Source: a virus. Taken from it: a stretch of DNA of 64,000 nucleotides. Where the stretch lies: positions 1 to 64,000 of IMG/VR virus record IMGVR_UViG_3300042564_002580; one strand, 5' to 3'. Positions 3,540 through 34,954 of this stretch are shown here, in pieces. The notes beneath the pieces are model-generated. The model saw nothing but the letters and a program-made list of their open reading frames with translations, was not told the origin of the DNA and searched no databases. Position numbers and translations under genes: made by a program. The first letter of the stretch is position 1, and each line of letters opens with the position of its first letter.

Positions 3540-3831
3540 ATTAGATTCAGACGAACAGTCAATTAGATGGTGGCACCTGGCTGCATGTAGCGGCATGGAC
3601 ACTAATCTATTTTTTGATAAATACGAATCTGATATAAATATGGCAAAGGCTATAGATCAATGCTGCCTGTCTTGCCCAGTTATGAAAATATGCCACAAGT
3701 CTGGGATTGAAAATAATGAGTACGGTGTTTGGGGCGGAGTATATTTATCTTCAGGATTAATTGATAAAATGAAAAATGTTCATAAGACAAAAGATATATG
3801 GAAACAGATTAGAGCAAAACAAAATGTCTAA
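3520..3831 (+). CDS. whiB: WhiB-family Fe-S transcription factor
   Basis: AAC...LFF...CLSCPVMKIC...GVWGG signature. Confidence 0.9.
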   Translation: MSNILNELDSDEQSIRWWHLAACSGMDTNLFFDKYESDINMAKAIDQCCLSCPVMKICHKSGIENNEYGVWGGVYLSSGLIDKMKNVHKTKDIWKQIRAKQNV

Positions 3832-9828: not shown

Positions 9829-10623
9829 ATGAAATTTCATTGGATGATCAGGCATGAAGATACAAGCCCAGATGGTTTAAAAAAAGCTTTTAACTATATT
9901 AATAGCTTTGGGTATAACTCATGCATGTTAACTTACCATTCAAGAGAAAATGACATGTTTATTAAGCTTGCTAGGGCAATAGACCCAAGCATAGCGTTAA
10001 AATATATTATAGCAATGAGAACCTATGCCATAAGCCCAGAGTACCTTGGGCTTATGGTAAAAGGCTTTGAAGAGATTGCAAAAGATAAGATTATGTTTAA
10101 TATAGTTGCTGGGGACCTACATGCAAATGAAACTAGTGTAGAGGATATGGTTGATTCTACTATGTTGGCCACATCCCAGGATAGAGTTAAATACACTGGG
10201 TTATGGTTAGAAAAATTCGTTAACTTGGAAATTTTAAAAGGCCGCATTCCGAAGATGTTTATGAGCGGAACTTCAAAAGCCACATTTGAAAACTGCAAAA
10301 AATTTAATGGCGGTGCCATGGTAATGGTTGATTATTATATGGAAAATAAAGAGTTCCTATCTCAATTTGATACCAGGTGTGTAAGTCTACAGATATGTAT
10401 TAGAGATACAGATGAAGAAGCTAATGAAGTAAAGCATGCAAATTATGATGGGGACAAGCTAAAGTGGTGCTATTTTTATTCAGAAAAGACTTTATTGGAA
10501 AAGCTAATTGATCTGAAAAAAAATGGAGTAACTGATATAATGGTTACTGGACTACCATTTGACCCTGAAGTTTATAGGGTTCATGAATTTATAAAGAAAA
10601 ATATGGAGATTTTTAATGGATGA
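9829..10623 (+). CDS. Luciferase-like (LLM class) flavin monooxygenase
   Basis: YIIAMRTYAISPEY, FNIVAG, MSGTS motifs resembling SsuD family. Confidence 0.7.
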   Translation: MKFHWMIRHEDTSPDGLKKAFNYINSFGYNSCMLTYHSRENDMFIKLARAIDPSIALKYIIAMRTYAISPEYLGLMVKGFEEIAKDKIMFNIVAGDLHANETSVEDMVDSTMLATSQDRVKYTGLWLEKFVNLEILKGRIPKMFMSGTSKATFENCKKFNGGAMVMVDYYMENKEFLSQFDTRCVSLQICIRDTDEEANEVKHANYDGDKLKWCYFYSEKTLLEKLIDLKKNGVTDIMVTGLPFDPEVYRVHEFIKKNMEIFNG

Positions 10624-11296
10624 TGTAAAGATAATTAATAATTTTATATCTAAAGAAGATATTGATATATTTAGAAAATACATAGACAACAATTGGGAAG
10701 ATCAGACCTTGTTTAGACATAGGGTTGGGTTAGCATTCAATAAAGGATTAGCAGTGAGAGCTGTTTTCCCAGACGAGAAGCCAGCATCATTATTTAAAGA
10801 GCTAGAAGACATAGTGTATAAACATTCTGAAAAATTTTTAAACCTATCTAAAGATCTTTTTTCTGACGATAGAGAGGTTTATTTTTATGGCGTATCTATT
10901 ACTAGATTGAGCAAAGATATTCAAATAAGAATTCACGCAGACATCCATGAAGACTTTAGTGATTTAGTTTATTCTGGAGTAATGTATTTAAATGATGATT
11001 ATGAGGGTGGAGAGATAACATTTGTTGATAGCCACGAGTTTACCGAAAAAGATATAAAGATGGATTACTCTAAAGGATTGCTGGTTCCATTTCCTATTTA
11101 TGAAGACTCATTAGGAGGATTTTCCTATAAGCCTGTAGCTGGAGATATTGTTATATTCCCAGCTAATAAGTTGCACGGAGGTAAGGTGGTAATTGATGGA
11201 ACTAGGGACGCAATAGTCTTTTGGTCTACGTTATCAAAAGAGTACGCATTTGAAGGTTTTGACTCAGACAGAGTCTTAAAAAAGATAAGAAGCTGA
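10616..11296 (+). CDS. 2OG-Fe(II) oxygenase, prolyl-4-hydroxylase-like
   Basis: HAD, YLNDDYEGGE, H..R. Confidence 0.85.
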   Translation: MDDVKIINNFISKEDIDIFRKYIDNNWEDQTLFRHRVGLAFNKGLAVRAVFPDEKPASLFKELEDIVYKHSEKFLNLSKDLFSDDREVYFYGVSITRLSKDIQIRIHADIHEDFSDLVYSGVMYLNDDYEGGEITFVDSHEFTEKDIKMDYSKGLLVPFPIYEDSLGGFSYKPVAGDIVIFPANKLHGGKVVIDGTRDAIVFWSTLSKEYAFEGFDSDRVLKKIRS

Positions 11297-18662: not shown

Positions 18663-19628
18663 ATGATTAAATATCGCTTAGTAGCATCAATTGCTACATC
18701 AATTGTTATGTTCATTTCTCCTGCATATGCAGTTGAGAATGGCACACTATTAACTCAAGATGAGAATGCCGTATATCTATTAGATGGCTCAGTAAACGCT
18801 TTCTTGTATCAACCACAAATTGTATTCACATCCTCACATGGAATGGATCAGTGGGCTAAAGGTGAGCTATTTGTTAACAACAGCTCAGGCCAAAAGTCTA
18901 AGGTCGATAAGATACTTATGGCTCCAGGATTTAAAGATAGAATAATTACTAAAGAGGCTATTGCCGCTGGCAAAGCAGTTTTAAGTCGCTCCAATGACTT
19001 TGCAATTCTAATTCTTCAAGAGCCACTTCCAATGACTCAAAAGGTAGATCTAATTAAGAGTAATGATCTTTTAGATATAATCCGTAATCAAGAGCCAGTG
19101 TATTCAATTGGATATAGCTCATACGACAACACTCGTAAAAAAGATCAGCGTCCAAGGCAACTCGAAGCAAAAATGATTGATAAAGAATTAGCAAGGCAAA
19201 TATACGAAGCTTATTACTCAGTTGGACATCCTAATTGGGGGCCAAAGGGATCTACCTTTGAGTTGATAGATATTCAATTAGTACACTCTGCAGCAACGGG
19301 TTCAGGATGTAACGGAGACTCAGGCAGCGGTTACTTCCTCAAAAGGGGTAACACTAAGGTTTACCTTGGTCCAGCAGGGGCACATGCTGTTGGTATACCA
19401 AACTGTGGGGAACCTGGATTCTGGGGAGACAAAGGTAATGCCTTTGCAGTTGAGCCTGTGTATAAGCACTTAGACCTAATAAAGCAGGCTGAGCTAATTG
19501 TTGATCAGATGAATGTAAAGCCAGTAGAGCCCACTGTAAAGCCCACACCACAGCCTACTGCAACACCAAAGGCGGGAAGAAAGAAAGCCTTCAGATATAT
19601 ACATAAAACATCTCATAGGTGTCTATAA
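18663..19628 (+). CDS. Secreted trypsin-like (S1) serine protease
   Basis: Signal peptide, TSSHG, NDFAIL, CNGDSGSG; TTGACA..TATAAT promoter then leaderless ATG 18663. Confidence 0.8.
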   Translation: MIKYRLVASIATSIVMFISPAYAVENGTLLTQDENAVYLLDGSVNAFLYQPQIVFTSSHGMDQWAKGELFVNNSSGQKSKVDKILMAPGFKDRIITKEAIAAGKAVLSRSNDFAILILQEPLPMTQKVDLIKSNDLLDIIRNQEPVYSIGYSSYDNTRKKDQRPRQLEAKMIDKELARQIYEAYYSVGHPNWGPKGSTFELIDIQLVHSAATGSGCNGDSGSGYFLKRGNTKVYLGPAGAHAVGIPNCGEPGFWGDKGNAFAVEPVYKHLDLIKQAELIVDQMNVKPVEPTVKPTPQPTATPKAGRKKAFRYIHKTSHRCL

Positions 19629-19710
19629 TACCCATATAGATGGCGAAAAAAGTGAAGTCGAAAAGTAGAGACCCCTTGTCAGTACCTGACATAAATGTTA
19701 TAATAAATAC

Positions 19711-19920
19711 ATGCTGCAGAACTTAGAGATACCTGATCCATTTGCTACATTTGTGGCACACAAGTACGCTAATTTTAAGGGTATGAAATATGACTTCTTT
19801 AGCGGTGAATGGGATATGAAATGTGGATGCTGCTCAGAGCCATTAAACGCTCCAACTAAGAAAATATTAAATAAGATCAGGCTATATCACACTCGTAATG
19901 AATGTCTTGGGGGGTACTGA
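19711..19920 (+). CDS. Small Cys/His protein
   Basis: CGCC..HTRNEC; TTGTCA-N17-TATAAT 6 nt before ATG. Confidence 0.6.
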   Translation: MLQNLEIPDPFATFVAHKYANFKGMKYDFFSGEWDMKCGCCSEPLNAPTKKILNKIRLYHTRNECLGGY

Positions 19921-20906
19921 TGAGCGATATTGATACTGACAGATCAATGCGTCTTAAATTAGCTATAGAAGAGATGCTTAAAGATATTGATATGAGCGGT
20001 GAAGAGTGGAATGATCGTGATAAAAACGGGATCCCATATTGGGAAAAAGGCGGGGAGGCCTAATAATGATAACAATACTAGCTATACTAATCACATGGTA
20101 TGCAACTAAACTATACTATACAAGATCATTTACCTTTGATATAGAACAATCTAATCTAATTAAGGCCACATGCCATAAATGTGCTCGAACAGGATATGTT
20201 CACCCAGAACATCTTCGTGCTCCATATTACTGCATCTCCTGTAAATAATGGATAAATTCGAATCATCTTGGAGCAAATTTGCCAAGGAATATGAGCCATA
20301 TAAGGTAGCATGTACTCAATGTAAGCAACTATATATCAAGCAAGATGATGACCCATTTATATGCCTTACATGCTCAGCAAGAAAGCTGTAGAAATTTAAG
20401 CAATTGGGTCCTTACCCATTATATCCCCCCTCCCTTTATCTCCCTTGTATCAGCCTCCTAGAGGCTTATTTAGTGGAGTATTGTGGAGTAAAGTGGAGAA
20501 TCATACTATCAATTTAGATCCAAATACTATCATTATATCTATCTAAACATACCTATGTAATGGAACCCTATCAATTAATGTTCGTAATGTCAATAGGGCC
20601 CATATAAAGCATATTGGCCAATATTTGTCAATAGCTTTCATATAAAATTCCAGGAAATTTTTTTATTTGGTCGTAAAGAGCAATTTTGGCCCATATTTAT
20701 GGCAAAAAATTCTGTCAGATTCTGCATTATTTGTCTCATATAATGAGATATTCTATGCACATTTTGACAGATTATATTAGATTTATTATACATTTTCCAG
20801 GGTTTTTTATATGTGATCGTAAAGAAGAAATTTGGCCCATAAGATGGGCATATAAAAATGGGACATATAGCTAATTAAAGCCATATGCCCCATAGGGGAA
20901 GTTATA

Positions 20907-21251
20907 TTAGAATGAATCTAAGTCCATTATGTATTTGCTATCTCTTACTCTTGTTTCTTTCAAGGAGTCTATTGTTAGGTTTCTATCCACCGCTCCATAT
21001 TTTGCTTCCAGCATATCATTGAGCGCATCTGCTAAAAGCAATCCTTCGGATGTATATCCTTTATCCCATTCTGACTTTAATCTAAGGGAATTGTATTGGA
21101 TAATGTATCTAACTAGTTCCATTAGCCTGTCTTGGGTGTACAAGGTATGTTCAGTTGTTAATACATTTGCCATTACGGCAGGGGAGAAGTTAGCATTGTT
21201 TAGATAGTCTGTTAGTTTTTCTGCTGCTTTGAATTCGTTCGCTTTAGCCAT
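20907..21251 (-). CDS. Hypothetical early-type protein
   Basis: SD ACGAAAGAGG, own TGTCAG promoter. Confidence 0.7.
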   Translation of the reverse strand: MAKANEFKAAEKLTDYLNNANFSPAVMANVLTTEHTLYTQDRLMELVRYIIQYNSLRLKSEWDKGYTSEGLLLADALNDMLEAKYGAVDRNLTIDSLKETRVRDSKYIMDLDSF

Positions 21252-21309
21252 TGAGTTCCACCTCTTTCGTTTTGATTATACCATTGGGCACTGACATTTG
21301 TAAATGAAG

Positions 21310-21339
21310 GGGGACCTGCCTCCGAAGAGGAAGGTCCCC
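21310..21339 (-). terminator. Terminator-like hairpin after mini-Lsr2
   Basis: GGGGACCT..CCTC CGAA GAGG..AGGTCCCC. Confidence 0.6.
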
Positions 21340-21350
21340 ACAGTTAGCTA

Positions 21351-21503
21351 TTACTTGACGTTCTTCTTGTCTGTGAAGACTACGCCTTCTTGTGCTGCCT
21401 TGCTGATAGCTCCTAGAGCTGCAGCTGAGAAGCGGCCACGCTTGCCCACAGAAATTCCCTGGGCCTTGAGGTACTCACGAGTTGTTGTTGGTGTTGATGT
21501 CAT
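21351..21503 (-). CDS. 50-aa Lsr2 C-terminal DNA-binding-domain-like peptide
   Basis: MTSTPTTTREYLKAQGISVGKRGRFSAAALGAI...; RGR AT-hook in Lsr2-like context; SD AGAAAGGA. Confidence 0.65.
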   Translation of the reverse strand: MTSTPTTTREYLKAQGISVGKRGRFSAAALGAISKAAQEGVVFTDKKNVK

Positions 21504-21660
21504 TTGGTTTGATCCTTTCTAGATCGAGTTGTTATATATATTATATCCGAATTTCGGGGATTTGTAAATAGGGGCCGTAAAGCAATATTTTTGCCCGTGC
21601 CCTTAGATTATGACCGTTATGTCTGAATTGTCCATAACGGCCCAACCTATCTTTATTTAG

Positions 21661-23337
21661 TTATACTTCTATTTCTTCGATGTTATATGGTTCAATCGTG
21701 TCATCAGTTGAAACTTCTGTCCAGCCCTCTACAGGAATACGAAGGGCTGATTCCCAAGCAAGGTCGTGAGACTCTGCATTAATGACTACAGAAAACTTCT
21801 GCGTTCGGTCCCCGTAGATTTTATAGTCTTGTCTCATAGTTCCACCTGTTCTATCTTATCTTTAATTAACTTAGCAATGATGTTGTGTGCCTCGATGTTT
21901 TCTGTTTCGGACCCACCCCACAAAAGTTTTTGGGCTGTAATAAGTTGATCGTTTAAGTACTTATCACTCATCTTCATCTTCGTCCTCCTCTTCTTCTTCA
22001 TCAGGGTCTACGATGTAATCCCTGCTCATCATCCAATCTAAAACTTCTTCTTGATGTTGCTCGGCGCCCCACTCTAGAGAGAAGCCCATACCAGCCTCTA
22101 CAGCCTCACACAGGTGGTCCCACATCTCGTCTTGGGTTGCCTTGGCAACATAGGTGTCATCGTCTAGGATGTTATTAATAGTTGACCATGTCCATAGCCA
22201 AACAAGCGATAGGCCAAGGTCGGTGGTGTCTAGAATTTCTAAACATTCATTTAGTTTATCTTTATCTTCAGGCTTCACCACGTGCTCCAATCGCAAATGA
22301 TAGTTGGTATGTTAGTTCATATAGTGCTACTAGGGCGTCAAGGTACCCTTCGCATTCAGTACGGACCATAGAGTCCATTGCTTCTTCTGATTCTTCTTCC
22401 CGTTCGATTGCGTCTGCTAGTTCCTGCTCGGCAATTAGCATTAGATTTTTTAGTTCACCGTGCATTATATCTAATCCACTAACACCTGCATTAACCAAAC
22501 GTTGCAAATGGGGCGGGAGCCCAAGGTCTTCCATAGTCATATCCATTAATATACCCTTTCGTTATTATTCATTATATCAGTTGCCACTGACAATAAATGT
22601 TCGGTTGCTTCAATTGCTCCTTGGAAGTAATCATCTGAAGGGTCATATTCATCATCCTTCAAAGGCTCCCCATTTTTAGTAGCCTCCCAATCTTGATTAA
22701 GACTAATTAGATGTAACTTCATATACTCTAGGAAATAAGATGATTTAGTCATTACTTAATTCCCTTCGTTTCAGCATAATGCTTAAGAGCCTTATTAATT
22801 AGTTCTCTGTTCTCTGCTTCTTCTTGTTCAACTTTTTGCTCATGTTCTCTAATTTTTTCTTCCATCTCAAGTTCGCTTTTAGCATTTTCCCATGCGCTAA
22901 CTAGCATAAGCATACCAAATATAACAGCAAAAACCATCCATATTTCCATTAGTCGAAATACCCTTCTGCCCATAGTCCTTGTAAGAAATCATGGGCGGTT
23001 ACTAGATAGTTATGAATAGCAGGATTCTCATCAGGATTAATCAACAAGTCAGCTTGATATACTCCATATGTCATATCTGCTAAATCTTTTTGTGTATAAC
23101 CTAGCATTATTTCTCCTCATCATATTCTAAATAGTATTGGTCGCCTGGATTTAAATCATAGAATAGATTAAATCTACCCTTTAAGTAATTGTTATCTGAC
23201 ATTTCTGCAAATCTAAAATCTGCAAACATTTGCCCTTCATCTAAATTAGAGTTGACCCAATCTTCGACAAGCATTTCTCCTATCTCAGAATATGTTGCGT
23301 CTATTACCATTTGATTTTCATTCTCTAGAAAACTCAT
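21661..23337 (-). CDS. Run of coupled small acidic hypothetical ORFs (21661-21837, 21834-21971, 21964-22278, 22268-22546, 22546-22752, 22752-22949, 22949-23107, 23107-23337)
   Basis: Stop/start overlaps and SD motifs throughout. Confidence 0.65.
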
Positions 23338-24077
23338 TCGGTTCCCACCTTTCTATATTCGGGTACTTTAGTTTCTAAGTATATAGCATGGGTCTGACAA
23401 ATTGCGACAGCATCTAGGTCAGCCTCTCCTAGCCAATTGCAATTGCCACAAATCTGACCGCAGTCATTGTCGCAATACTCCATTTGATTAGTTGCATCAC
23501 AATCACGACACATGTTGTCGTATTCTGATTCTGAGATAACTTCTCCACGGAGGAATTCCATTTCTCCACCCCAGCCTGTTTCTTCTTCATATGATAAAGT
23601 AAATAGTAATGTTGGGTATTGTGCAGATAGTTTAGATATAGCCCCAAGAGGTCGTGACCATGCAGTATTAAAGTTGTAATGGACTACATGATTTTCAGCG
23701 TTCTCATAATCTTCCATAGTTGTATCAGGATACTTATCATCCTCGGCTACAGCCACATCCCACTTAGTACCCCATTCACGGTTATTAAAGTTGTACCAGT
23801 CATTGGTCTCAAACTTCATCCAGTCGGCAAATGAAGAGTCGGCGGAACTAGGAGGTTGTCCATGATACTCAGTATCAGATACACCATGGTCTACATATGA
23901 ATAGATATTATGAAAAGCAAAGATAGGATTAACATACTTACGTTGCTTGATATTAAATGATAAATCACCATTAGATTGAACTGAATAAACAAATGGCTTA
24001 TTCATTTGCTTAATTAAAGATTTAACTTGGTCAGGATTTCCCTCAATAGTTAAACCGTTATATACCCAATTTGGCAT
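23334..24077 (-). CDS. DUF1281/YubB ferredoxin-like family protein with C-terminal Cys cluster
   Basis: MPNWVYN, WYNFNNREWGTKWD, FNTAWSRP; SD ACGAAAGGA before ATG 24077. Confidence 0.7.
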   Translation of the reverse strand: MPNWVYNGLTIEGNPDQVKSLIKQMNKPFVYSVQSNGDLSFNIKQRKYVNPIFAFHNIYSYVDHGVSDTEYHGQPPSSADSSFADWMKFETNDWYNFNNREWGTKWDVAVAEDDKYPDTTMEDYENAENHVVHYNFNTAWSRPLGAISKLSAQYPTLLFTLSYEEETGWGGEMEFLRGEVISESEYDNMCRDCDATNQMEYCDNDCGQICGNCNWLGEADLDAVAICQTHAIYLETKVPEYRKVGTE

Positions 24078-24254
24078 TTTATATCCTTTCGTTGATATGT
24101 GATAATTATACATTGGACCACTGACAAATGGAATAGGATTGGCATGTGATACATGCCACATGATTCAACTTTGTGGTCAAGATCACACAAATTCCAGAGA
24201 ATATAGTTGACAGTCGTAAAGACAATATGCTACCCTCAAGTCTTTGCGGGCAAT

Positions 24255-24282
24255 AGAAAACCCCCAGCTATGCTGGGGGTTA
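24255..24282 (-). terminator. Intrinsic terminator
   Basis: AACCCCCAGC-ATA-GCTGGGGGTT followed by T-rich tail on minus strand. Confidence 0.75.
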
Positions 24283-24405
24283 TGAATATGGCTGCTGATT
24301 TCCAACGAAAGAAATAAACCGCTTTACTTAGCGCCTGGCCCTAAAGACTAATAGACGCACCATTTCATTTCTATATTAAAACCAGGACCAAGGTCCTAGG
24401 TCTAA

Positions 24406-25320
24406 TTATACCATAACTAGTCGACTGTATTTATCTACAAATGACGCCAAGGATGATGTGAACACTACCGTGCTCAGGTCCTCTTCGTACAATGTAAACG
24501 TTTCGTTGGTCCAGTCAATTACGGGCACCTTATGTTCGTTGTCCCCTAGTTGGTTAACATAAATTCCCCAGCCTGTTGTCTGAGTCCAGTCTTCTCCAAT
24601 TAGATTAGATATAGCAATACGTGTTGCATATGACTCGTCTTGCCAACGAGTTTCTGCAGCCTGCACAGCATTTGCTAATTTGGCTAGCATATTATGTCCA
24701 GCCCAGTGTCCATATAGAAATACTACATTTTCCTTGGAATCTCTGAATCCAAAGTTTGCTCTGTCTCCCATTTTATTCTGCTTTCGTTAGTAGTTGATTT
24801 TCCTCGTAGTTGAGTAATTGTACCATTTCATGGGCCCAGTCCACAAGAGACTCGCCCTGTTTATTTTTATGGTGGCCGCAGAAGTAAAGAGAAAATGAAT
24901 CTTTCTTTGCTTCCCACATAGCCTGAGCTGCACACTGGTCACACTTAAGCCATTCAGCCATCACAGTTTGCCACCTTCGATCATCTCAGATAGACGGTCA
25001 AGAATCCAAGAATCGATATCATTAATATCAATCTCTGATAACTTTTCCATGATTTCATCACGAGCAAACTTGTAACCATCTGCCCAACCATCTTTATACT
25101 CTGACATAATCTCTCCTTAATAACCTGTGGTTTCGTGGTCTGATACATAAGATTCAGTTAAGTTGTACTTATCTCTAAGCCTACTTACTTTCTCAATACT
25201 ACCAGTTCCGATGTTGAATGTCAACGCAGACATTGCTTGTGGGTCAAGTCCCGTTATCTCTGCATCCCAATACGCTCTCTGCATAGAGAGCATATCAGGA
25301 GCGGTAAGTTCAAAGTACAT
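24406..25320 (-). CDS. Four small hypothetical ORFs (24406-24771, 24773-24964, 24961-25107, 25117-25320)
   Basis: MGDRANF..FLYGHWAG; CDQC..FCGHH zinc motif; coupled starts. Confidence 0.65.
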
Positions 25321-25967
25321 TAGTTCTCCCTTACATTACATACCTCAGTGTCAACAATTTCAATGTTGCCATTTTGTGAATCAACATAAAGATTGTCGTA
25401 GATTTCTTGTTCTACATCTGTATCTGAATCAGCAAGTAAATCTAACTGAATAGTTCCGCTAACTTCAATTGTTGCAGACCACTCAACTTCTCTAGTTAAC
25501 TCAATCTCAAGGGCTTCGGCAATTAAACGAAGTGTTTCTTGGTCATCTGAATCGCTATAGGCTTCAACAATAATATCTTTAACTGAAGCAATCTTATTTG
25601 TTAAGACTGAAGCAATTTTAGAGTTAGTCCGTGAGTTATGTAGTTCCCATTCAATGTTGCGAACCTTGTCGGTTGCATATTCAGGGTCAGAGTAATTGCT
25701 TACAATCTTATAGGTAACCAATAGGTCAGGGTTATATTCTACTGCAGGTGATACTGTTGTTTCCATTTGCTCCTCTTTCGTTGTTGTTGGTGTAATTGTA
25801 GCATGCTCCACTGACAATAAGGTAGTCTTACGTCCGCAAGGGCATGTGAGTTCTGTCACACCTGATGGGAATCCAAACCCGTCAGATGATGTTAGTTCTA
25901 TTAATGAATCGCATTCATCTGGGTCACAGACAAAGGTGTACTTACTTGATACTAGTTCGTTGGTCAT
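25320..25967 (-). CDS. Hypothetical protein with two in-frame starts (25967 leaderless; 25766 with SD)
   Basis: Promoter 7 nt before ATG 25967; second promoter plus ACGAAAGAGGAG before ATG 25766. Confidence 0.65.
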   Translation of the reverse strand: MTNELVSSKYTFVCDPDECDSLIELTSSDGFGFPSGVTELTCPCGRKTTLLSVEHATITPTTTKEEQMETTVSPAVEYNPDLLVTYKIVSNYSDPEYATDKVRNIEWELHNSRTNSKIASVLTNKIASVKDIIVEAYSDSDDQETLRLIAEALEIELTREVEWSATIEVSGTIQLDLLADSDTDVEQEIYDNLYVDSQNGNIEIVDTEVCNVREN

Positions 25968-26068
25968 AAAGAGAATTGTACCAGGTCCCACTGACATTAT
26001 CAAGGATTTCCAGGGAATTTAAATGTGAGTCGTAACACACTTTTTGCCCCCTTAGCATTGAGGGCGCT

Positions 26069-26145
26069 TGGCGATCCATAACGGACTTGAACCGTCGACC
26101 TCTACCGTGACAGGGTAGCGCTCTAACCAACTGAGCTAATGGACC
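26069..26145 (-). tRNA. tRNA-Asp(GTC)
   Basis: GGTCCATTAGCTCAGTTGGTTAGAGCG CTACC-CTGTCAC-GGTAG ...GGTTCAAGTCC..ATGGATCG-CCA. Confidence 0.95.
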
Positions 26146-26158
26146 TGGAAAAAATTGT

Positions 26159-26185
26159 GAGCAGTTTTTATTCATGCTCAGGAAT
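26159..26185 (-). ncRNA. Putative 27-nt H-type pseudoknot, copy 1
   Basis: ATTC-CTGAGCAT-GAAT-AAAAAC-TGCTC. Confidence 0.55.
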
Positions 26186-26193
26186 TTATTTAT

Positions 26194-27201
26194 TTAGAAC
26201 GCAGAAACTAATTTTTTAATTTTATTTTTTTCTGCGGTTAGAATTGGGTCAAAGCCTGATGCACCCGCCATAAGTGTTTCAGAATTGCCACGACCTGAAC
26301 GATAGTAATCAAGGCGTTCAGTAAGTGCGTTGAATGCGCCCCACTTTGTTCCCTTGATATTAGCATTGGTTGGTGAGTTATGGTACAACTCATCAAGGAG
26401 CACGACTTTGTTTTCCCACTTAGTCAATGCAACTTTAGCAGCATCCTTATCTGGCTTAGGATAAATTGTCTGAATCAACTTTGAGAATTCAGCATCAGTG
26501 ATTGATTGAGAATAAAGAGCCTGAGCCTCTTTCTCAAATTCATCAAAGTAACCAAGAGCAAGCCCAAGAGTTTCACGAGCAACTTGGATGCGACCTTCAA
26601 CAGATTGCGTGTGGCGAATCTTGAAAGATTGCTTAGCATTCTTCATTGCAAGGTTAAGAGTGTTTTGGCATACAACACGAACAGGAGTAACAGCAGCCTG
26701 AACAGCAACTGACCCGTCATGAGATGTCCAAACAATTAGATACAACTTAGTTGCATCATTTGCGCCTTGTGGGTCAAGCACCATTGTGCGAGGAATATCC
26801 ACTGTACCGAATACAACCTTACCGCTACGAAGTGAGCCAGCAGATTCCCAACGGCAATCAGCATTAGCATCATGAATTGCATCAGCGAATGCGAATAGTT
26901 CCTCATTCTGCACAGGCTTGTAACGCTTTCCAACAGTTGCAAGCACATCAGTGCCATTGTTGAATGGGTTATCACGAATAACCAATTGAGCATTAGATAC
27001 ATCATTCCATGTATCTGAGATATGGTCAGTTAGTGGAGACAAGCGAACATTCCAATTGGAAAGTTTTGCCTCATCTAACATCATTTGAGTTGTAACATCT
27101 TCATCTTGTGTAAAGATGCGATTTGCAAGGTTGTGCCATGCAGGTGCGCCACGAAGTGCGAATGCAACTTCGCCATTTTCCATTTCTAGATTATGAGCCA
27201 T
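26194..27201 (-). CDS. DUF932 family phage/plasmid-like protein
   Basis: PAWHNL, YKPVQN, ESAGSL..G, SHDGS, PVRVVCQNTL, RHT, GTKWGAFNA. Confidence 0.85.
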   Translation of the reverse strand: MAHNLEMENGEVAFALRGAPAWHNLANRIFTQDEDVTTQMMLDEAKLSNWNVRLSPLTDHISDTWNDVSNAQLVIRDNPFNNGTDVLATVGKRYKPVQNEELFAFADAIHDANADCRWESAGSLRSGKVVFGTVDIPRTMVLDPQGANDATKLYLIVWTSHDGSVAVQAAVTPVRVVCQNTLNLAMKNAKQSFKIRHTQSVEGRIQVARETLGLALGYFDEFEKEAQALYSQSITDAEFSKLIQTIYPKPDKDAAKVALTKWENKVVLLDELYHNSPTNANIKGTKWGAFNALTERLDYYRSGRGNSETLMAGASGFDPILTAEKNKIKKLVSAF

Positions 27202-27400
27202 TTTTTACCTTTCGTTTGTTTGATTAGTTGTAAGTATAACAGATGCCACTGACATTGTCTATGATTAGTTACAATATGTCCGAATTGATCCATGTGATTA
27301 ATCTCACAAAATTCCAGGGTTATCCACAAGTGGTCGTAACCCTGTGGATAACCCCTTAGCTTTGCGGGCCAGCTGCACATATGCAGCCAGTGTTAGATCT

Positions 27401-27655
27401 TTACAGACCTAACTCATCCCTAGTCAATTGATTCTTGCGGTTAAAGTTTACAACTTCGGACGGGAGGTAAAGAGCAGTCGTTTTAGTCTTCTTTAAAGTA
27501 TCATAGACATAAGCACGAACATTACCAAAGAAGTTACGTCGATTAGAAAATACTAATTCAGTTAAGTACTCTTTATCAACACCTTGCTCAGAATAGATTG
27601 TTAAATCATTTAACTTGTTTTCATCATAAATTTCTACACGAAATCTATTTTTCAT
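27401..27655 (-). CDS. Hypothetical protein
   Basis: ORF with SD AAAGG. Confidence 0.6.
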   Translation of the reverse strand: MKNRFRVEIYDENKLNDLTIYSEQGVDKEYLTELVFSNRRNFFGNVRAYVYDTLKKTKTTALYLPSEVVNFNRKNQLTRDELGL

Positions 27656-27690
27656 TTTATTACCTTTGTTAGTAGTTGTCCCCGAAGGGA

Positions 27691-27717
27691 GAGCAGTTTG
27701 GCGACTTACTCAGGTCG
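27691..27717 (-). ncRNA. Putative 27-nt H-type pseudoknot, copy 2
   Basis: CGAC-CTGAGTAA-GTCG-CCAAAC-TGCTC. Confidence 0.55.
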
Positions 27718-27751
27718 TTCGCAATTTATCGTTATGCGAGAACGATTTTAT

Positions 27752-28174
27752 TTACAGATAACGAGCAATAGCATTGTAAGTGCTTGTGCTTACTGTTTCC
27801 TCATCTGTCATCTTTAGAATACGAATTGCGTTTTCCAATTCCTCTTTTATCTCATTGTATGAGTGGCGGTGGAGAACTTCGTAGTCCTTCTCAGGCTCTT
27901 TAGGAAAGTCTGACTCATTAACTGTTAAATCAAAATCAACATTAAGTGTCTTGTTCCATTGACGATAGTTTGTGCGTAGGTTTTCTGCCTTAGCAAAATT
28001 AGCCATAGCAAACTTTGCTACTTCTTTGCGCCACTTTTCTAAAGCCTTTTCGTGCTTTGCTTCGTTGGCTTCTTGTGATGCGTAATCGGCATTTAACTTT
28101 GTCAAGCGAGTTTCTAGTGCCTTGATTACCTTTGGTGTTGCTATCTTTACGCTAATTGCTTTCTGTCGTGCCAT
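27752..28174 (-). CDS. Hypothetical basic/coiled-coil protein
   Basis: Own TGTCAG promoter and SD ACGAAAGAAGGA. Confidence 0.7.
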   Translation of the reverse strand: MARQKAISVKIATPKVIKALETRLTKLNADYASQEANEAKHEKALEKWRKEVAKFAMANFAKAENLRTNYRQWNKTLNVDFDLTVNESDFPKEPEKDYEVLHRHSYNEIKEELENAIRILKMTDEETVSTSTYNAIARYL

Positions 28175-28260
28175 TTGTTTCCTTCTTTCGTTGTTGGTTG
28201 GTTTGGTTGAGTAATTATAGCAGGGAGGTCTGACATTTCTGCGACCCCCCTGCCTTTAGA

Positions 28261-30328
28261 TTATACGCCTAGTAGTGTTTGAGCAGATACTGAAGTCCAG
28301 CGAGTTTCTTTCGTTGGGAGTTCTAGTAGCACACGCACCGAGCCAGATGTTTGTGGGTGGATTTCCTTAATCACACCTGTCTTTTTTGACTTTAGGGTGG
28401 TGAATAAATCGCCAACCTTGTAAGTGTATCCATTTACTGTCATTTATTGCCTCTTTTCTTTGTTAGGGTTGTAGTATAGCATTGGGGTCTGACATTAGTC
28501 TAGCCCTATCTCATTATTTGAGAAAGTTATTGTGTGACCTTAGTCACTTTCAGGTAGCCAAGCGTCTAAGTGGTGCTGTTCGATAATAGCCCACGCGGGC
28601 GCATGAGAGTCACCCTTATAAGATACGCCTTCAGGCATTTCGATCAACTTATTATAATCCTCATCATAGTAGGCATCAATAGCATCAATGCAAGGTTGCA
28701 CCATAGAAAGCGGAACGGGTGGGTAATGATTACCCTGTAAGTGATAACCTAGTGCTACCTCTAAATCTAATTCAGTTAAATCTAATGCTGTATTGTATCC
28801 CATTATTCTGCCACCTTAAGAATTGCGTAGGAACCACGCTCATTTATTTTATCAAGTGTTGTCTTAAGAGCAGGCGCAATTAAATCCTTTAGCATAGACT
28901 CAAGAATTAAAATCTGTGAGCCTTCGTCTAATTGTAAAAATTGCTTTGCTATTGGATGTTCCTCATCAAACTCAGTTACAAATCGGAGAGAGTGTTCTAC
29001 TTTAGTCATTTATTGCCTTTCGTTGTTGGTATAAGAGTATTATAGCCTATCCCACTGACAAATTGTGCAACACGCCCAAGCTTTATCTAATTTATTTTGT
29101 GATTAATCTCACAAATTCCAGGGGGTTGTGGATAACTGCCGTAAGCCTGTGGATAACCCCGCAGTATTGCGGGCCTGCATAGCTATGCATTACTCTGCAT
29201 ATTTATTTTTATGTTTGATCTTTCTAAAATATTTTTTCTTATTGCGAACAGGTTGCGCCGCATTACTGCGACGCAATTCCTGAATTCGCTTTACTTTATC
29301 TCGAAGTGAATTTTGGGACATGATACCCACTCGCTTCATGAAATCTATTTACATCAAATCGTTCATTATCTTTTGCGAACATTTCCGCAAAATCATTTAC
29401 CATTTTAGAAAATAGTGCTGGGTGTGCTTTATCGCTTGCGAACTTTAAAATTTCTGCTACTGCGACATAATCTTTTCGTGTCATCATTTAACTGATACCA
29501 TTCCTGTTCTGTAGAAAACTTTTGTATAGCATTTGCCTGTTGGCGTGTAAATATTTACAGTTGAGTATTCGTTAGCAAATCCCCAATCGGTGAATAAGAA
29601 AAAGTTTTCCCAAGCACCAAATTCGCTTTCGTATTCTGCTGACCAATGAGGAGCGTGTCCGTCATAAGCACAAGTTAATTTATACATTAGTCATTTTCTC
29701 CGTTCCAAAATAGTGAGCCGTCATCTACGCAAGCGCAAGGCTCGCAATCAAAATCATTATCATTACCAAAAAAGATTACTCCGTGTCCGTGGCAATCTTG
29801 GCAATCTATTGTTAATACTGAGTTAATCATTAGTGTTGTTCCTCGCAATCTTTGTCATAGTCAAATCCGCAAAAGTAGCAACCCATAAATTCTAGGTGTT
29901 CGATACAGTAATACTTAAATTGACTTTCATCACAACAAAAATGTTGCTCGTCTGCGATTTCATAGAAATCGGTTTTGTCGATTATGTTTAACATAGTTTT
30001 CCTTTCGTTTGTTTATTTAGTTATTGTATCAGTTAGCACTGACAAATTTTGCGAGGGTTCTTACTTACGACATTGGGCGAGGACTCCCTCTAAACTGCCC
30101 CTGTTTCGATTTTATTTAATCGGAAGTTTTTACGGCTAAATAGCGGTAAGTATCTTTTAGATTTAGCGGTGCAGAATAAATTGGGCGTACCTGCACTTTG
30201 TAAGTATCTGCATTTGCATACCAGACACTATCATTTTTTTCTGCTGAGATAATTTCTCCAGTAAGAGAATTTGAGCGATACATTTTTCCTACAAGTAGGC
30301 TTTCGATAGTATAGACATTTGCTGACAT
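28261..30328 (-). CDS. Small hypothetical ORFs (28261-28443, 28540-28803, 28803-29009, 29190-29321, 29296-29487, 29484-29687, 29687-29830, 29830-29994, 30116-30328)
   Basis: Coupled ORFs behind TGTCAG promoters with ACGAAAGG-type SD. Confidence 0.65.
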
Positions 30329-30560
30329 TTGAGTCCGCCTTTCGTTGTTGTTATGTATGGAATTATACACGAACCCACTGACATAATCTAATTACTAGCG
30401 AGTAATTCCACATTTTGAGACGCTCAACTCATGTGATAAAAATCACAAAATCTCGGGCGTGTCGTAAATTCCAGGGGGTTGTGGATAAGTCCCGTAAGCC
30501 TGTGGATAACCCCGCTCTTTTGCGGGCGCATCAACTTTTGTCAAGTAGACACGCCGTTGC

Positions 30561-32615
30561 TTATTCGAAATCCTTAAAAATTTCTTCAAGCTTTAAGATT
30601 TGCTCATCGGTAAGATGATCAATTTCAATTGCTTTTTCAAATCCAAAAAAATCCATTATTCGTTTTCCATTTCTGCTAGATAATCCTCATGTTCAACTAA
30701 TCCAATCGCAAAAGCAACAGGGTCGCAACATTCCAAAATTTCGGCGGGTGTAAAAGTTGAATAACCAATTTTTACAGTAGGATAAACATCATTTAGTAAA
30801 TCAATAAAACTTTCTTTAATTTCTAAATCTTTTTCGAATTGTGATTTCATTCGCTTAACTCCAAATCTCTTATGTCGGCAACATAAACATTATTTTTATT
30901 TATTCCGTATTTTAATTGAAATTGAAATGTATCAATAGCCTCATCATAGGATTCAGCCTCGACATTTATAAAAGCATTAAACTCATAAACTGGCATGATT
31001 ACCAACACTCCTCACATGTGAATTTAGTAAAGTCTGCATCTTTTGCAAAAATCTCTAAATAGTTATTCGAACAAATTGTGCATGATAGCAAATAAGTATT
31101 TGCCTTTTGGTACATGTATGGATTAGAGTTAGATAACTCTCTATTCTCTAAAACCTCTGATGAAATTAAAATACTCATTTAGTTAAACTCCAATCGGTGT
31201 AAAATGGTAAGCGGTCATAGTCATCATAGAAATAAACTCTATCTATGTTCTGCTCGCATGTTTCGCAGAAAGTGTATTCGACATCTACGCCCATGCCATA
31301 GGTAGTAGATACGCTCTCCATGTGTGGAGTGTGTGTATGTGTATTTGTTAGTGTAGTCATTTGAGACCACCTTTCTTTTTCGTTATGGTAGTATTTTACC
31401 ACGGGGGTCTGACATTTATCTACCTACTAGCCAGTAATTCCAAGATGTGAGACGCTCAGCCTATGTGATAATTATCACATAAATTCTGGGGTTTTCCACA
31501 GATGCCCGTAACCCTGTGGATAACCCCGCTCTTTTGCGGGCCAGCTTGACATTGTCAAGCCGACACGCCGTTAGGCTAGTGTGATCTTTCCGACTTTATG
31601 TGTTGCCATTCATCTATCCACTCACGCACTACTATGCGCCCCATAATAAGGGCGGGGATAGCAATAGATAACTGCACTAGTGTAGTTAGTAGTCTATTCA
31701 TTAGACACCCCACTCATCATTAGGTAATTTATCCATTTCATTGTTAATTAGAGATGCCCATCTATGCGCCTGTATTCTCTTATAAACCTTATAACCGATA
31801 AAAACAAGGGCAGACAAGATAAGGAAAGCCCATGATAGGGATAGATAGAGGAAGTCCCCTAAGTCAAGCATTAAGCCGTATTCATTTAGTTCGATAGTCA
31901 TTATTAATTCTCCCATGATAGTGCGTATAGTTTTGCTAGTTCGTCTGTATCTTCATCATTAAACTCATCTAGTGGAGGTTGTTCCTCATCTACCTCATCA
32001 AGGTATGTGTATGCGTCTGCGACATCTTCTTGGATAGTATCCCATTTAGATACGCTGTTATTCTCGTATGAGTATGCGTATGACATTACTTATTCATCTC
32101 CTTAGCAATAGCCTCTGATTTAGTAAGTGCCTCTAGTGCTATGGCTAGAGAGGCGAGGCGTTGCGCCTCCACCATTTGCTTGTATTCATCTAGTGTCATT
32201 AGTTAGTTTCTACCTTTCGCAAGTGTGCTACTACATTTTTAGAAATCTTTTGTAAATCTTTAACTGTCTTAGTCATCTCATCTACGCTATTAGCGGTTTG
32301 AAATCCGAGGAATTGTGAGCCGTCCCAAATTGTGTATGTTATTGTCATTTACTGTTCTTCTTTCGTTTGTTGGTTATAATGGAATTGTAGCCTATTGGGC
32401 TGACATTATCAAGCCGACACGCACCCTGTGGGGTGTGAGTTGTGTCACATACCTCGCTTGAGGCGAATAGCCTCGACCTGTGCTAATTGCTCAGGTGTAG
32501 CGTTGCGGAAAGCCTGTACGCTCTCCCTTATCCAAGGTGACTTAGCCATAGCCTTTTCATGCGCTATGTGGCGAGCAAGGTCTTGCTCTGCCTTTATTCT
32601 ATTTAGTGTATTCAT
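30561..32615 (-). CDS. Small hypothetical ORFs (30561-30656, 30656-30850, 30847-30996, 30999-31178, 31175-31360, 31701-31901, 31904-32086, 32086-32199, 32199-32348, 32445-32615)
   Basis: Coupled ORFs behind TGTCAG promoters. Confidence 0.6.
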
Positions 32616-33000
32616 TAGATGAGTACCTTTCGTTTGTTTGTTATACCTTAAGCATAGCATGGGGGACTGACAAATTGAGGCACATCTCGGGCGTGTCGCA
32701 AAAAAATCTTTGTGATGCTCATCACACTCACGCTCAAGCCCAAAAGAATAATGGGCGCACTATCCAAAATGTCCGTTTTGTCCAGGGTGTGTATCATACA
32801 TGTAAAAAATATATTAACATTTTCTTAAATCCTAAAAAACAGTCGACTAGAATATAAGGCGGTGGTACAATAGAGATATGACATGTTCATTTTGCGATAA
32901 ATACGCATATACAAGTATGATCAACAGCAAAGGTGTTAAATATAACCTTTGCGAGATACATGTAAAAAAAATTAGCACAATTGACAAGTAAGGCAAAGCA

Positions 33001-33894
33001 TTGATTGATTCAGAATTACCATTCTTTGGATTTGGCGTAGATATTCCAAAAATTATATGGCAAACTGGAAAAGAAGATTTTGAAAATTTACAATATCCCT
33101 TTAATATAAACGTAGAAACCTGGAAACAGGTTAACCCAGAATGGGAATACAGATACTCCAATCAAAAAGAAAAGATTAGCCAGATAAATGATTTTGGAGA
33201 TAAAGATCTATCTGAGCTTTCATCTAAACTTTGGGGAGCATTTTTAGCAGATCTTTGGAGGTATATTGTTATATACAATCATGGTGGGGTATATGTAGAT
33301 CTAGATACCGTAGCTCGATTGCCCTTAGACATAATTAAATACAATATTACCAATAAGCTAAACGAAACATTTATAATGCCAGATCTAGGAAAATGGGGAT
33401 ACGGTACGCCAAATAGCCCTACAACTTCTATGTTGGTATATAAAGGATCGGAAGATGGCAAAAGGGTTTATTGTCAAGGCTGCTATGATTTTGTAGAGTA
33501 TATTTTGGAAAGAAATGGCAATAAAAAAATTTATCTACCAAATTCTTCTTTTGCTGCAATAAAAAGGGCAAAGCCAATTAAATATGTTTTAGATGAAGTC
33601 AAAGCAAGATTTGCTATGTTTAAAAAACTACATGATTATGATATTGATGGTATTCATGGATCTATACTTTTATCAGTAGACTGCTCTGCATGGGATTATG
33701 CAATAAACAAAAACCCTAAACTAGTAGCACAAAATTTTATATATCAATATGATGCAACACCACTTAAAGGATCACTTTGGGAAAATGAATCTAATAAAAA
33801 TAAAATTTTATTTAAAGATGAATTTATAGATTATGAAATTTTGCAAATAAACAAAACATCTTACAATAAGTTTATTAATAAAGCAGTCGACTAG
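33001..33894 (+). CDS. Glycosyltransferase, GT32/OCH1-like
   Basis: IPKIIWQT, ADLWRY..IY..GGVYVDLD (DXD). Confidence 0.85.
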   Translation: MIDSELPFFGFGVDIPKIIWQTGKEDFENLQYPFNINVETWKQVNPEWEYRYSNQKEKISQINDFGDKDLSELSSKLWGAFLADLWRYIVIYNHGGVYVDLDTVARLPLDIIKYNITNKLNETFIMPDLGKWGYGTPNSPTTSMLVYKGSEDGKRVYCQGCYDFVEYILERNGNKKIYLPNSSFAAIKRAKPIKYVLDEVKARFAMFKKLHDYDIDGIHGSILLSVDCSAWDYAINKNPKLVAQNFIYQYDATPLKGSLWENESNKNKILFKDEFIDYEILQINKTSYNKFINKAVD

Positions 33895-34225
33895 AATATC
33901 TTTTAAAATCCATTGACTTTGTAAAATAACAAATGCTACACTTAGTTTGCTTTGTGGGGGGCTTACCCTGAAACTCAATATGTACCAGATGACATCTGTG
34001 GATATATGTTCAGGAACTGCTTTCTCTATCTTTCCAAAAAGAAAAAATTTGGGGGGTAGGGGGGCTTTCCTAAAATCTAATATCCCCAGATAAATCATTA
34101 AAAACAAAGAAAAAAATACATAAGAAAAGGCGGGATAGAAAGATGAAGTTAATTATTGCAGTAGCCATAGTAACTGTAATGACTTTCATCCTTGGTATTA
34201 TATATCAGATAATAGGCTAATATAA

Positions 34226-34300
34226 GGGCCTATAGCTTAATCTGGTTAAAGCAATTGTCTTATATGCAATCGACTTTGGGTTCAAATCCCAATAGGCCTA
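34226..34300 (+). tRNA. tRNA-Ile(TAT)
   Basis: GGGCCTA/TAGGCCT acceptor, anticodon arm ATTGT-CTTATAT-GCAAT, T arm TTGGG-TTCAAAT-CCCAA. Confidence 0.85.
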
Positions 34301-34336
34301 CTTGGTTTCTCACTTAATAGAGAGTATAATACTTAC

Positions 34337-34954
34337 ATGACTAGCAGAATAGTAACCCATATACTTGAATCAAAACTTAAGGATCTCCCGTTTTCTGTTT
34401 TAAAAAATTGCCTTGATTCAGAAATAACGCCAGAAATGTTTATAGAGTATTGCAATAGTGTATATGACGAACAGATTTCAGATTGGGATAAAAACTGTTT
34501 TAGAAGCCCAAGACAGACAATAGAGGCAGATCACCTTAATTACTTTCCTGAATGGAAGATTATAGTAAAAGATTTATCTAAACTTTACGGGAATATAGAC
34601 ACTTATTATCTTAGTCTCATGCAAACTGGAGAAAAGTCGATAAATACAATACATGCTGGTCTTCACAATGATAGTGCAGATGTTGTTCACATAAATTGTT
34701 TTGGTCAAGTAGAATGGACTTTAGTTGACCCAAATGATGTGGATCAAAAAGAAAATAAAGTTGTCTTAGAACCAGGTGATATGCTATATATGAGAGGAAT
34801 GACTCTTCATCAAACCATTCCTTTGACCAAAAGAGGATCGCTTATATTTATGACCCTTCCCTTAAATACAGATTATAATTTTAGCACTGATAATCAAAAG
34901 GAAATGCTTTTAGAAGGTATTAAAAGTGATTTATCTAACAAAAGATACATCTAG
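34337..34954 (+). CDS. Cupin/JmjC-like oxygenase
   Basis: HNDSADVVH..G...W, LEPGDMLY....HQT. Confidence 0.7.
   Translation: MTSRIVTHILESKLKDLPFSVLKNCLDSEITPEMFIEYCNSVYDEQISDWDKNCFRSPRQTIEADHLNYFPEWKIIVKDLSKLYGNIDTYYLSLMQTGEKSINTIHAGLHNDSADVVHINCFGQVEWTLVDPNDVDQKENKVVLEPGDMLYMRGMTLHQTIPLTKRGSLIFMTLPLNTDYNFSTDNQKEMLLEGIKSDLSNKRYI

Follow-up and report, generated by a model that had tools for sequence, protein, structure and literature searches.

A nine-copy DNA motif of fixed spacing and orientation at the ends of leftward early units in a likely actinobacterial phage, tentatively read as a boundary element

What could be the role of a short bipartite sequence that recurs nine times, always the same way round, between the small genes of an uncultured phage? 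The window analysed here is the first 64 kb of a virus record of 117,027 bp (IMGVR_UViG_3300042564_002580; 37% G+C), and it contains a block at 20.9-32.66 kb in which every gene lies on the minus strand and which is flanked on both sides by plus-strand genes. An original prediction, made from the letters of the window, had reported nine copies of an element in this block. The motif AAWTTYCRGGG-N15/16-CGTAA is present in exactly nine copies, all on the plus strand, between positions 20648 and 31543 (Table 1), and the number, the coordinates and the single orientation that had been given were all right. When remeasured, the distance from TTCC to CGTAA was, from left to right, 24, 23, 24, 23, 23, 23, 24, 24, and 23 nt, as predicted for every copy. 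The distance from CGTAA to a following GGG is 31 nt for the copies with CGTAA at 26031, 27335, 29140, 30493, and 31507 and 33 nt for the one at 24215, again as reported; it is 28 nt for the copy at 20818, and no GGG occurs within 60 nt of CGTAA in the copies at 20672 and 21576. One pair of copies is spaced by 147 bp and all other neighbors by 757-2640 bp, in agreement with the 0.8-2.6 kb proposed earlier. The CGTAA is constant and the left half varies from copy to copy, and neither half-site is an inverted repeat of the other.

In the whole 117,027-bp genome, the spaced pair TT[CT][CT][AG]G[GA]-N16/17-CGTAA has nine matches on the plus strand, none on the minus strand and none outside 20648-31484, and in 200 dinucleotide-preserving shuffles the same regular expression gave a mean of 0.30 and a maximum of 2 matches on both strands. 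This expression was built from the nine copies themselves, and an independent check was made with a weight matrix trained solely on other contigs, by which the nine copies obtained 23.9-37.6 bits and the next-best site on either strand of the genome 9.6 bits. The confinement to one block was thus recovered by both types of analysis. The left 8-mer TTCCAGGG, when searched with at most one mismatch, yielded 36 matches versus 33.5 expected and is not enriched; this half alone occurs at background frequency, and the signal resides in the spaced pair.

A scan of IMG/VR with the motif pattern found at least 118 loci, at least 26 of them with two or more strict copies. With a looser regular expression, 146 of 181 matches fell in sources having at least two same-strand copies, and these were reduced to 127 unique instances from 42 sources. 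All counts over the 127 instances given below are counts among the matches listed; they include orthologues, which are not independent, so that instance counts overstate independence, and the expression used for collecting them itself required CGTAA and a spacer of 15-16 nt. Among the matches listed, the motif is found in 41 related viral contigs in a single orientation and with the spacing conserved at 15/16 nt, within the range permitted by the expression (15 nt in 80 and 16 nt in 47 of the 127 instances). The consensus reads aAAATTYCAGGG, a T-rich start of the spacer, TCGTAA, 13-14 nt, and CCC...GGGC, with an A-rich stretch upstream of the left half, and the spacers vary in content, which may be DnaA boxes either way round, a CGACACGCCCGA box, hexamers resembling a -35 element, or simply A/T. 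In whole records of relatives the copies are limited to one block of about 11-14 kb and to one orientation: the relative G001 has seven copies in 93.0-104.2 kb and one stray copy, and the relative G002 has four or five copies in 22.0-36.1 kb. Where the block ends, neighboring units may abut, at 41 bp in one contig (L114) and at 49 bp in another (L033). The copies and the relatives together support the earlier view of a DNA-level element with fixed spacing and an exchangeable spacer, and a literature search on the motif and its context found no description of it, as the prediction had supposed.

The nine copies split the block into eight leftward units with one to three promoters each. Each unit is closed by a copy, the last one by two copies without a gene beyond, and the first two promoters (32672 and 32405) have no copy upstream. 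The earlier statement that every copy lies past the 3' end of a cassette and ahead of the following cassette's promoter therefore describes seven copies but not the two leftmost, after which no gene follows. This layout recurs in the more distant relative G001, where 18 promoters go with seven to eight copies. In 86 of the 127 instances, a promoter of the type used by PafBC, the DNA-damage activator of the host, which acts as a sensor of single-stranded DNA, lies on the TTCC side at no more than 160 nt and points away from the motif, and no other arrangement was seen in any of the 127; the distance between motif and promoter ranges from 0 to 126 nt with no clear register. On the other side of the motif lies a stem, and the distance from motif to stem is constant at 13-14 nt whatever the sequence of the gap. 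Read in gene direction, the module consists of the stem, 11-12 nt, TTACG, N15/16, and CCCTGGAAWTT. The segment past CGTAA is more stable when folded as leftward RNA in 97 of the 127 instances and as rightward RNA in 28, with 2 equal, whereas 300 control windows from the same block gave 140 versus 138, with 22 equal. This fold bias, which is lacking in the controls, suggests that the stem belongs to the leftward transcripts.

With this arrangement in view, we tentatively favor, at a probability clearly below even, the reading that the nine copies are oriented protein-binding boundary or roadblock sites ending leftward early units. A sequence-specific factor, probably encoded by the phage, would bind the copies and so mark the end of each unit. 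In gene direction, its site would present a GC-clamped stem (GCCCGC...GGGG), 11-12 nt, TTACG, 15-16 nt that are free, and CCCTGGAAWTT, and its action would be polar, with the bound factor located immediately downstream of the stem at the end of the upstream mRNA. Leftward RNA polymerase would be stopped or stalled there, and each unit would then rely on its own PafBC-type promoter. DnaA and other boxes in the two uncontacted spacers could serve as extra blocks or as inputs of the host state.

The same stem could be regarded instead as part of an RNA element in read-through leftward transcripts, made of the stem and two single-stranded motifs and concerned with processing or antitermination. 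Its bias to leftward RNA would agree with this, and the order of stem and then short conserved boxes is reminiscent of nut and boxA-boxB sites. However, the motif element had no match in Rfam at E values up to 1, no conserved structure was found beyond the weak stem, and the spacers hold boxes for DNA-level proteins in either orientation, and we regard an RNA element as very improbable. Searching positions 19500-34500 against Rfam 15, two tRNAs reached the gathering score and five other matches remained far below their thresholds.

What had been overlooked in the original prediction is that each cassette possesses a promoter of its own, of a different and recognisable type. Fifteen sites TGTCAG-N10-TAnnnT on the gene strand fit the PafBC motif tGTCgg(N10)tA(N3)T without a -35 element, and in two publications this motif is described as having a strictly conserved GTC and no -35 element (PMC8635444, PMC6789036). 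The phage sites thus match that published form of the PafBC (RecA-NDp) promoter, with the GTC kept and the -35 absent, but differ in being phage-borne, in numbering 15 within 11.4 kb and in having phased CRP-like sites upstream. In the genome, TGTCAG-N10-TAnnnT occurs 20 times (shuffle mean, 4.86), and the minus strand of the block accounts for 17 of these sites. In the Gamulin form, the RecA-NDp promoter is written tTGTCRgtg-N8-TAnnnT. Nearly all fifteen promoters are followed by a leader of 20-35 nt with ACGAAAGG and ATG, and a near-identical leader, AACAAACGAAAGG with 5-10 nt and ATG, precedes the first gene of almost every unit (for example 29010-29038 and 27202-27232). The promoter at 25996 is followed merely by a five-codon open reading frame (ORF) and, after about 180 nt, by the next promoter (25816), which may point to a small RNA or to a mini-ORF without a leader. 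A profile search of the genome found no WYL protein in the phage. These sites suggest that the phage uses the host activator PafBC to drive its early genes, and literature searches on PafBC found no paper linking it to phage promoters.

All palindromes of the form TGTGA-N6-TCACA in the genome, seven in number, lie within 25.8-32.7 kb, compared with a shuffle mean of 0.22. These CRP/GlxR-type sites are centered at about -64.5, -74.5 or -84.5 from the inferred leftward starts, on the assumption that transcription starts seven nt past the -10 hexamer. Among relatives, a downstream PafBC-type promoter was found for 113 of 114 unique palindromes, and the centers fall at -63.5/-65.5 (30 cases), -73.5/-75.5 (41), -83.5/-85.5 (25), -69.5/-70.5 (13) and elsewhere (4). 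Judged by these positions, the palindromes appear to form a ten-bp ladder as is the case for class I activator sites, and because of their helical phasing with the leftward promoters they look like working regulator sites. Promoters and regulator sites of recognisable types thus belong to the cassettes themselves, and the nine-copy motif is something else. This bears on the proposal that the motif is the sense promoter of the following cassette, in which TTACG would serve as the -35 and CTGGAA as the -10 (site CCCTGGAA) for an alternative holoenzyme. The motif does have the gene-direction orientation and a promoter-like spacing of half-sites, and the 86 of 127 instances mentioned above lie upstream of a leftward promoter and gene; yet the first operon is without a copy, the last two copies are without a following gene, every cassette already has its own promoter, and neither half resembles a familiar -10 or has a fixed TAnnnT. 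There is little probability in a sense promoter.

Regulator boxes within the copies had led to another suggestion, a decoy or sensor array by which host regulators such as DnaA and CRP would be titrated. DnaA boxes occur in the four right-hand copies as described, inverted in those at 27312 and 31484 and direct in those at 29116 and 30469. The genome has 9 boxes TT[AT]TCCACA, 8 of them within these four copies, and whole-genome shuffles have a mean of 3.3. In favor of titration, eight consensus-type boxes are gathered in 4.2 kb and their count would double if the block were terminally repeated. The conserved half-sites, however, occur equally in five copies without DnaA boxes, and the part of the proposal concerning CRP is weakened since the phasing of the CRP-like palindromes with the leftward promoters makes them look regulatory; the CRP-like box noted in the 26008 copy does exist but is imperfect (TGTGAGTCGTAACACA). 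A decoy array is considered hardly probable. Further boxes, CGACACGCC(CGA), ATGTCCGAA, and CTTGACAnTGTCAAG, recur at 30448-30468, 30535-30550, 31545-31560, and about 32690-32705, and CGACACGCC(CGA) stands in for the CGTAA-adjacent DnaA box in some relatives. On the minus-strand reading, TTTTTTACATGTAT occurs twice in the divergent region 32790-32970, and after one copy of it comes a degenerate half-motif, CCCTGGAC, at 32780-32787 (minus strand).

Positions 20000-33000 have no megablast match among cultured phages. Related units were recognised in two cultured Streptomyces phages, Jay2Jay and Genie2, with terminal repeats of 11,438 bp and 12,432 bp, respectively, as computed from repeat offsets. 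Both repeats contain a leftward block of small genes including DUF932 and Lsr2-like genes, a layout in common with the block of the window. Units of the form YCYGGRA-ATTTT-N9-TCGTAAAG belong to the same family as the motif of the window, the similarity of the left halves being judged by eye, and a stricter motif pattern is found exclusively in the terminal repeats of both phages. On the plus strand, six CGTAAA are present in the first 677 bp (Jay2Jay) or 667 bp (Genie2) and one more in the next 13 kb, and two of the Jay2Jay units abut at 36 bp. The six-unit arrays and the single inner copy are located downstream of leftward genes, and the inner copy lies about 290 nt (Jay2Jay) or 230 nt (Genie2) upstream of a plus-strand HNH gene situated close to the repeat's inner end. 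From these comparisons, the motif family would appear to be old and specific for terminal repeats, densest at the physical left end and pointing inward. The left 1-700 of Jay2Jay (L121) and Genie2 (L150), with the six oriented CGTAAA units, is untranslated, and annotated plus-strand ORFs overlapping these units (gp1 and gp2 of Jay2Jay, gp1 of Genie2) may be miscalls. In Jay2Jay (about 10530-10760), the stretch separating the inner motif copy from the HNH gene contains at least eight TATGTAC-type repeats in a dense run that looks like an iteron array, and ATGTCCG-type boxes recur in the Jay2Jay repeat too.

These data give some weight to a function at the DNA level tied to genome ends, that is, staged entry, nicking, repeat duplication, end protection or packaging. 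Besides the confinement of the stricter motif to the terminal repeats, with six units at the left end, and the common layout with DUF932 and Lsr2-like genes, a parallel exists with phage T5, for the untranslated part of the T5-like terminal repeat contains eight paired DnaA boxes with fixed spacers and has been proposed as an injection stop signal (iss) (10.1101/866236). In the phage studied here there are eight boxes, which form four pairs in fixed places. T5 has one compact inverted-repeat region with 52-bp spacers and the function is an unproven proposal, whereas here nine direct bipartite units are dispersed at operon ends, four of them with DnaA boxes, in a phage of another host phylum. 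In addition, IMG/VR classes the record as linear and without end repeats, and that the block is a terminal repeat is inferred from relatives; a genome-end role leaves the fixed distance to an RNA-level stem and the placement at operon ends without explanation. We consider such a role rather unlikely. The more specific version in which the copies are stations of staged terminal-repeat entry, each holding or releasing the DNA according to bound host proteins, with DnaA at four of them and other factors at the rest, would be markedly less probable still; if true, it would couple DNA entry to the firing of the adjacent damage-response-type promoters and constitute a distributed counterpart, in actinobacterial phages, of the T5 injection stop.

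Whether the motif could itself be a promoter was explored for both strands. No offset on either strand has TAnnnT in at least 20% of 76 diverse instances, and without TAnnnT at a fixed offset the motif is neither a housekeeping nor an adaptor-type promoter. The motif halves contain no TTGACA-like -35, since one strand reads TTYCRGGG and the opposite one TTACG, and a promoter scan of the region gave 42 sites versus 39.9 expected. The motif is not a housekeeping-sigma promoter. In some orthologue groups, plus-strand sequences TTGACA-N17/18-TACCCT or TTGTCA-N17-CATATT overlap the motif, in differing registers. Inspection by eye for TGGAAT as -35 or -10, an A-tract -10, a sigma-54 promoter and a SigH/SigR-type GGAAT-N18-GTT revealed none that was consistent across copies. 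Candidates other than promoters were rejected as well: integron attC sites, because there is no tyrosine integrase (Phage_integrase had no match at E values up to 1) and the halves are not inverted repeats; recombination linkers, because the conserved blocks are too short; and a Dcm/EcoRII site, because four copies are without CCWGG. ParB_N had no match in the phage genome.

The original prediction had put forward an antisense promoter of an alternative sigma factor or a phage RNA polymerase. On this reading TTYCRGGG would be -35-like and CGTAA -10-like on the plus strand, served by polymerase carrying an unrecognised phage sigma factor or adaptor. Such a promoter would fire into the early operon, causing its shut-off by collision or antisense RNA, and then toward plus-strand genes. 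Promoters of extracytoplasmic function (ECF) sigma factors have a -35 block with an AAC core and CGT in the -10 block, and the motif resembles them in its two blocks 15-16 nt apart, in the CGT of the downstream block and in the T-tract after the upstream block; both the CGT and the spacing of about 16 nt had been required by the regular expression. The fixed CGTAA and variable left half are reminiscent of -10 and -35 elements, the A-rich stretch precedes the left half, regulator boxes in or beside the spacer would be operator-like, one copy stands at each operon 3' end, and the inner copies of Jay2Jay and Genie2 precede the HNH gene as described. On the other hand, the AAC core is absent, the left half being TTYCRGGG in all nine copies, and the motif is oriented opposite to all neighboring genes, with no plus-strand gene inside the block. 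Six-frame translations of the genome had no match to sigma region 2 (Sigma70_r2), and Sigma70_r4 and r4_2 gave weak matches solely to a 46-amino-acid (aa) helix-turn-helix (HTH) protein, with no ECF-type region 4, although a divergent sigma factor could escape such searches. A single-subunit RNA polymerase was not found either, in a weak search in which control genomes gave no match. In 401 genomes of one actinobacterial class, the exact motif had 19 single matches versus 11 for a reversed control and no genome with two, which gives no sign of a host regulon for this strict pattern, a degenerate host motif being able to escape it; the single AT-rich match falls within a 468-aa ORF. Finally, units 36-49 bp apart are too close for independent promoters, and the stem is biased to minus-strand RNA. 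The proposal fits the ECF-like geometry, but no sigma factor, core or regulon was found for it in these searches, and an antisense promoter appears to be an outside chance, though one to be taken seriously and about as probable as the genome-end role.

The boundary reading is favored because it accounts for the unit-end placement, for the polarity and the constant distance to the stem, for the arrays after the last gene and for the free spacers; abutting units (36, 41 and 49 bp) would also be easier to reconcile with proteins bound in an array than with promoters in tandem. Several observations weigh against it. RNAalifold found no consensus pairs in a 45-sequence alignment; under a six-pair stem model 69.8% of cells are paired, with the outer pairs conserved as sequence; and the covariation score of the stem, 0.122 versus a shuffled mean of 0.096, was equalled by 9 of 500 shuffles. 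A U-run after the stem is mostly absent, the right-hand copies having TTATCCACAGG in its place, and a terminator scan flagged one scaffold stem, at 20835-20849. The instances behind the strand bias are not independent, as orthologues are included. A strong hairpin ahead of the promoter at 21296 stands without the motif, and internal operon gaps in the repeats of the Streptomyces phages have no motif and contain GC hairpins and TTGTAT-N17-TAGACT promoters instead, so that the element is dispensable for operon punctuation there. With Pfam and PHROGs, the 37 ORF translations (34 distinct) offered no DNA-binding candidate besides the Lsr2-like 50-mer, and clustering of 1,513 minus-strand ORFs from 41 sources offered none among the widely shared ones, although co-occurrence is confounded because loci span different parts of the block. 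The small early proteins gave no informative family match. Lastly, half-site spacing together with a constant CGT is the signature of a sigma-type promoter.

The record is about 98% complete (CheckV). Its portal protein shares 55-59% identity with portals of Streptomyces phages of the family Stanwilliamsviridae, and this kinship, together with a WhiB-like gene (3568-3741, plus strand) and an Lsr2-like mini-protein, indicates that the host is likely an actinobacterium. The 46-aa HTH protein adjoins a RuvC-like ORF at about 102.87-103.01 kb of the genome (plus strand). Among the early proteins, those found most commonly across motif-bearing loci, distant ones included, are a 148-aa protein (25320-25766, minus strand) and a 121-aa protein (24406-24771, minus strand), and the 148-aa protein, being very acidic, might be a DNA mimic. 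Contigs that are at best 80-96% identical to the ribonucleotide reductase of the phage were met in 15 loci (L122-L136) of genome bins from unrelated phyla, with labels such as Bacteroidia, Saccharibacteria, Brevundimonas, and cyanobacterium, and these are probably mis-binned phage contigs. The positions of the features are listed in Table 1.

Table 1. Motif copies, leftward promoters, CRP-like palindromes and selected genes of the block, with weight-matrix scores of the motif copies.
Feature	Position	Strand	Description	Score (bits)
Copy 1	20648..20708	+	TTCCAGGA-N16-CGTAA, then stem GGCCCATATTTATGGC; no gene leftward	31.0
Copy 2	20795..20854	+	TTCCAGGG-N15-CGTAA, then stem GCCCATAAGATGGGC; after the last leftward gene (20907-21251)	30.0
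Copy 3	21552..21612	+	TTTCGGGG-N16-CGTAA; overlapped by minus-strand promoter-like TTTACA-N17-TATAAT ahead of the Lsr2-like mini-gene	29.4
Copy 4	24192..24251	+	TTCCAGAG-N15-CGTAA; plus-strand TTGACA in spacer; separate terminator-like hairpin nearby (24259-24281, minus strand)	23.9
Copy 5	26008..26067	+	TTCCAGGG-N15-CGTAA; imperfect palindrome overlaps CGTAA	31.3
Copy 6	27312..27371	+	Inverted DnaA-box pair, 27320-27328 and 27343-27351	37.6
Copy 7	29116..29176	+	Direct DnaA-box pair, 29127-29135 and 29148-29156	34.5
Copy 8	30469..30529	+	Direct DnaA-box pair, 30480-30488 and 30501-30509	32.7
Copy 9	31484..31543	+	TTCTGGGG-N15-CGTAA; inverted DnaA-type pair, 31492-31500 and 31515-31523	30.3
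Partial unit	20560..20600	+	CGTAA at 20583, then GGGCCC; left half not recognisable	
Fifteen PafBC-type promoters	21275..32672	-	TGTCAG-N10-TAnnnT; separate from the nine-copy motif	
Promoters 1-8, first T	32672, 32405, 31414, 30383, 30044, 29060, 28494, 28235	-		
Promoters 9-15, first T	27254, 25996, 25816, 24126, 23399, 22592, 21296	-		
Seven palindromes TGTGA-N6-TCACA	starts 25845, 27293, 29098, 30432, 31464, 32434, 32711 (to 32726)		16 bp each	
Lsr2 DNA-binding-domain-like protein	21351..21503	-	50 aa; phrog_6269, E 1.8e-7; weak Pfam match	
DUF932 protein	26194..27201	-	Homologue in the terminal repeat of BE-cluster Streptomyces phages	
tRNA-Asp	26069-26145	-	Adjoins copy 5	

If a factor binds these sites, large actinobacterial phages would have a new way to partition and time their takeover genes. 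The phage group is widespread, ranging from uncultured forms to Streptomyces phages that can be cultured in teaching laboratories, and bench tests are already feasible, since Jay2Jay and Genie2 bear the motif family at the ends of their genomes. The promoters may matter as much as the motif, since PafBC-fitting promoters with phased CRP-like sites suggest that the phage wires its first genes to damage and nutrient signals of the host.

Among known systems, roadblock terminators comprise the arrays of Sal boxes bound by TTF-I in ribosomal DNA, the block of the asnC transcript by DnaA, and Tus-Ter. As in those systems, oriented sites lie downstream of units, with arrays at a unit end and singles before the next promoter, and there the action is one-way; in the phage, by comparison, the candidate site is bipartite with a free spacer of 15-16 nt, and both binder and termination are inferred. 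The stoperators of cluster A mycobacteriophages are asymmetric sites of 13-14 bp which, when bound by the immunity repressor, block elongating polymerase. They share with the present motif that asymmetric sites are many and that their orientation follows transcription, but stoperators are scattered genome-wide and through genes, whereas the motif is bipartite, intergenic, limited to one block and has no known repressor. The host-takeover module of SPO1 lies in the terminal redundancy, and both in it and in the promoter-early stem-loops (PeSL) of T4 the repeats are host-sigma promoters themselves. The block described here is like both in being an early block of short operons of small genes with repeated promoter and stem-loop modules, and differs from them in that its promoters are separate from the repeat, which is no housekeeping promoter and is too short for homologous exchange.

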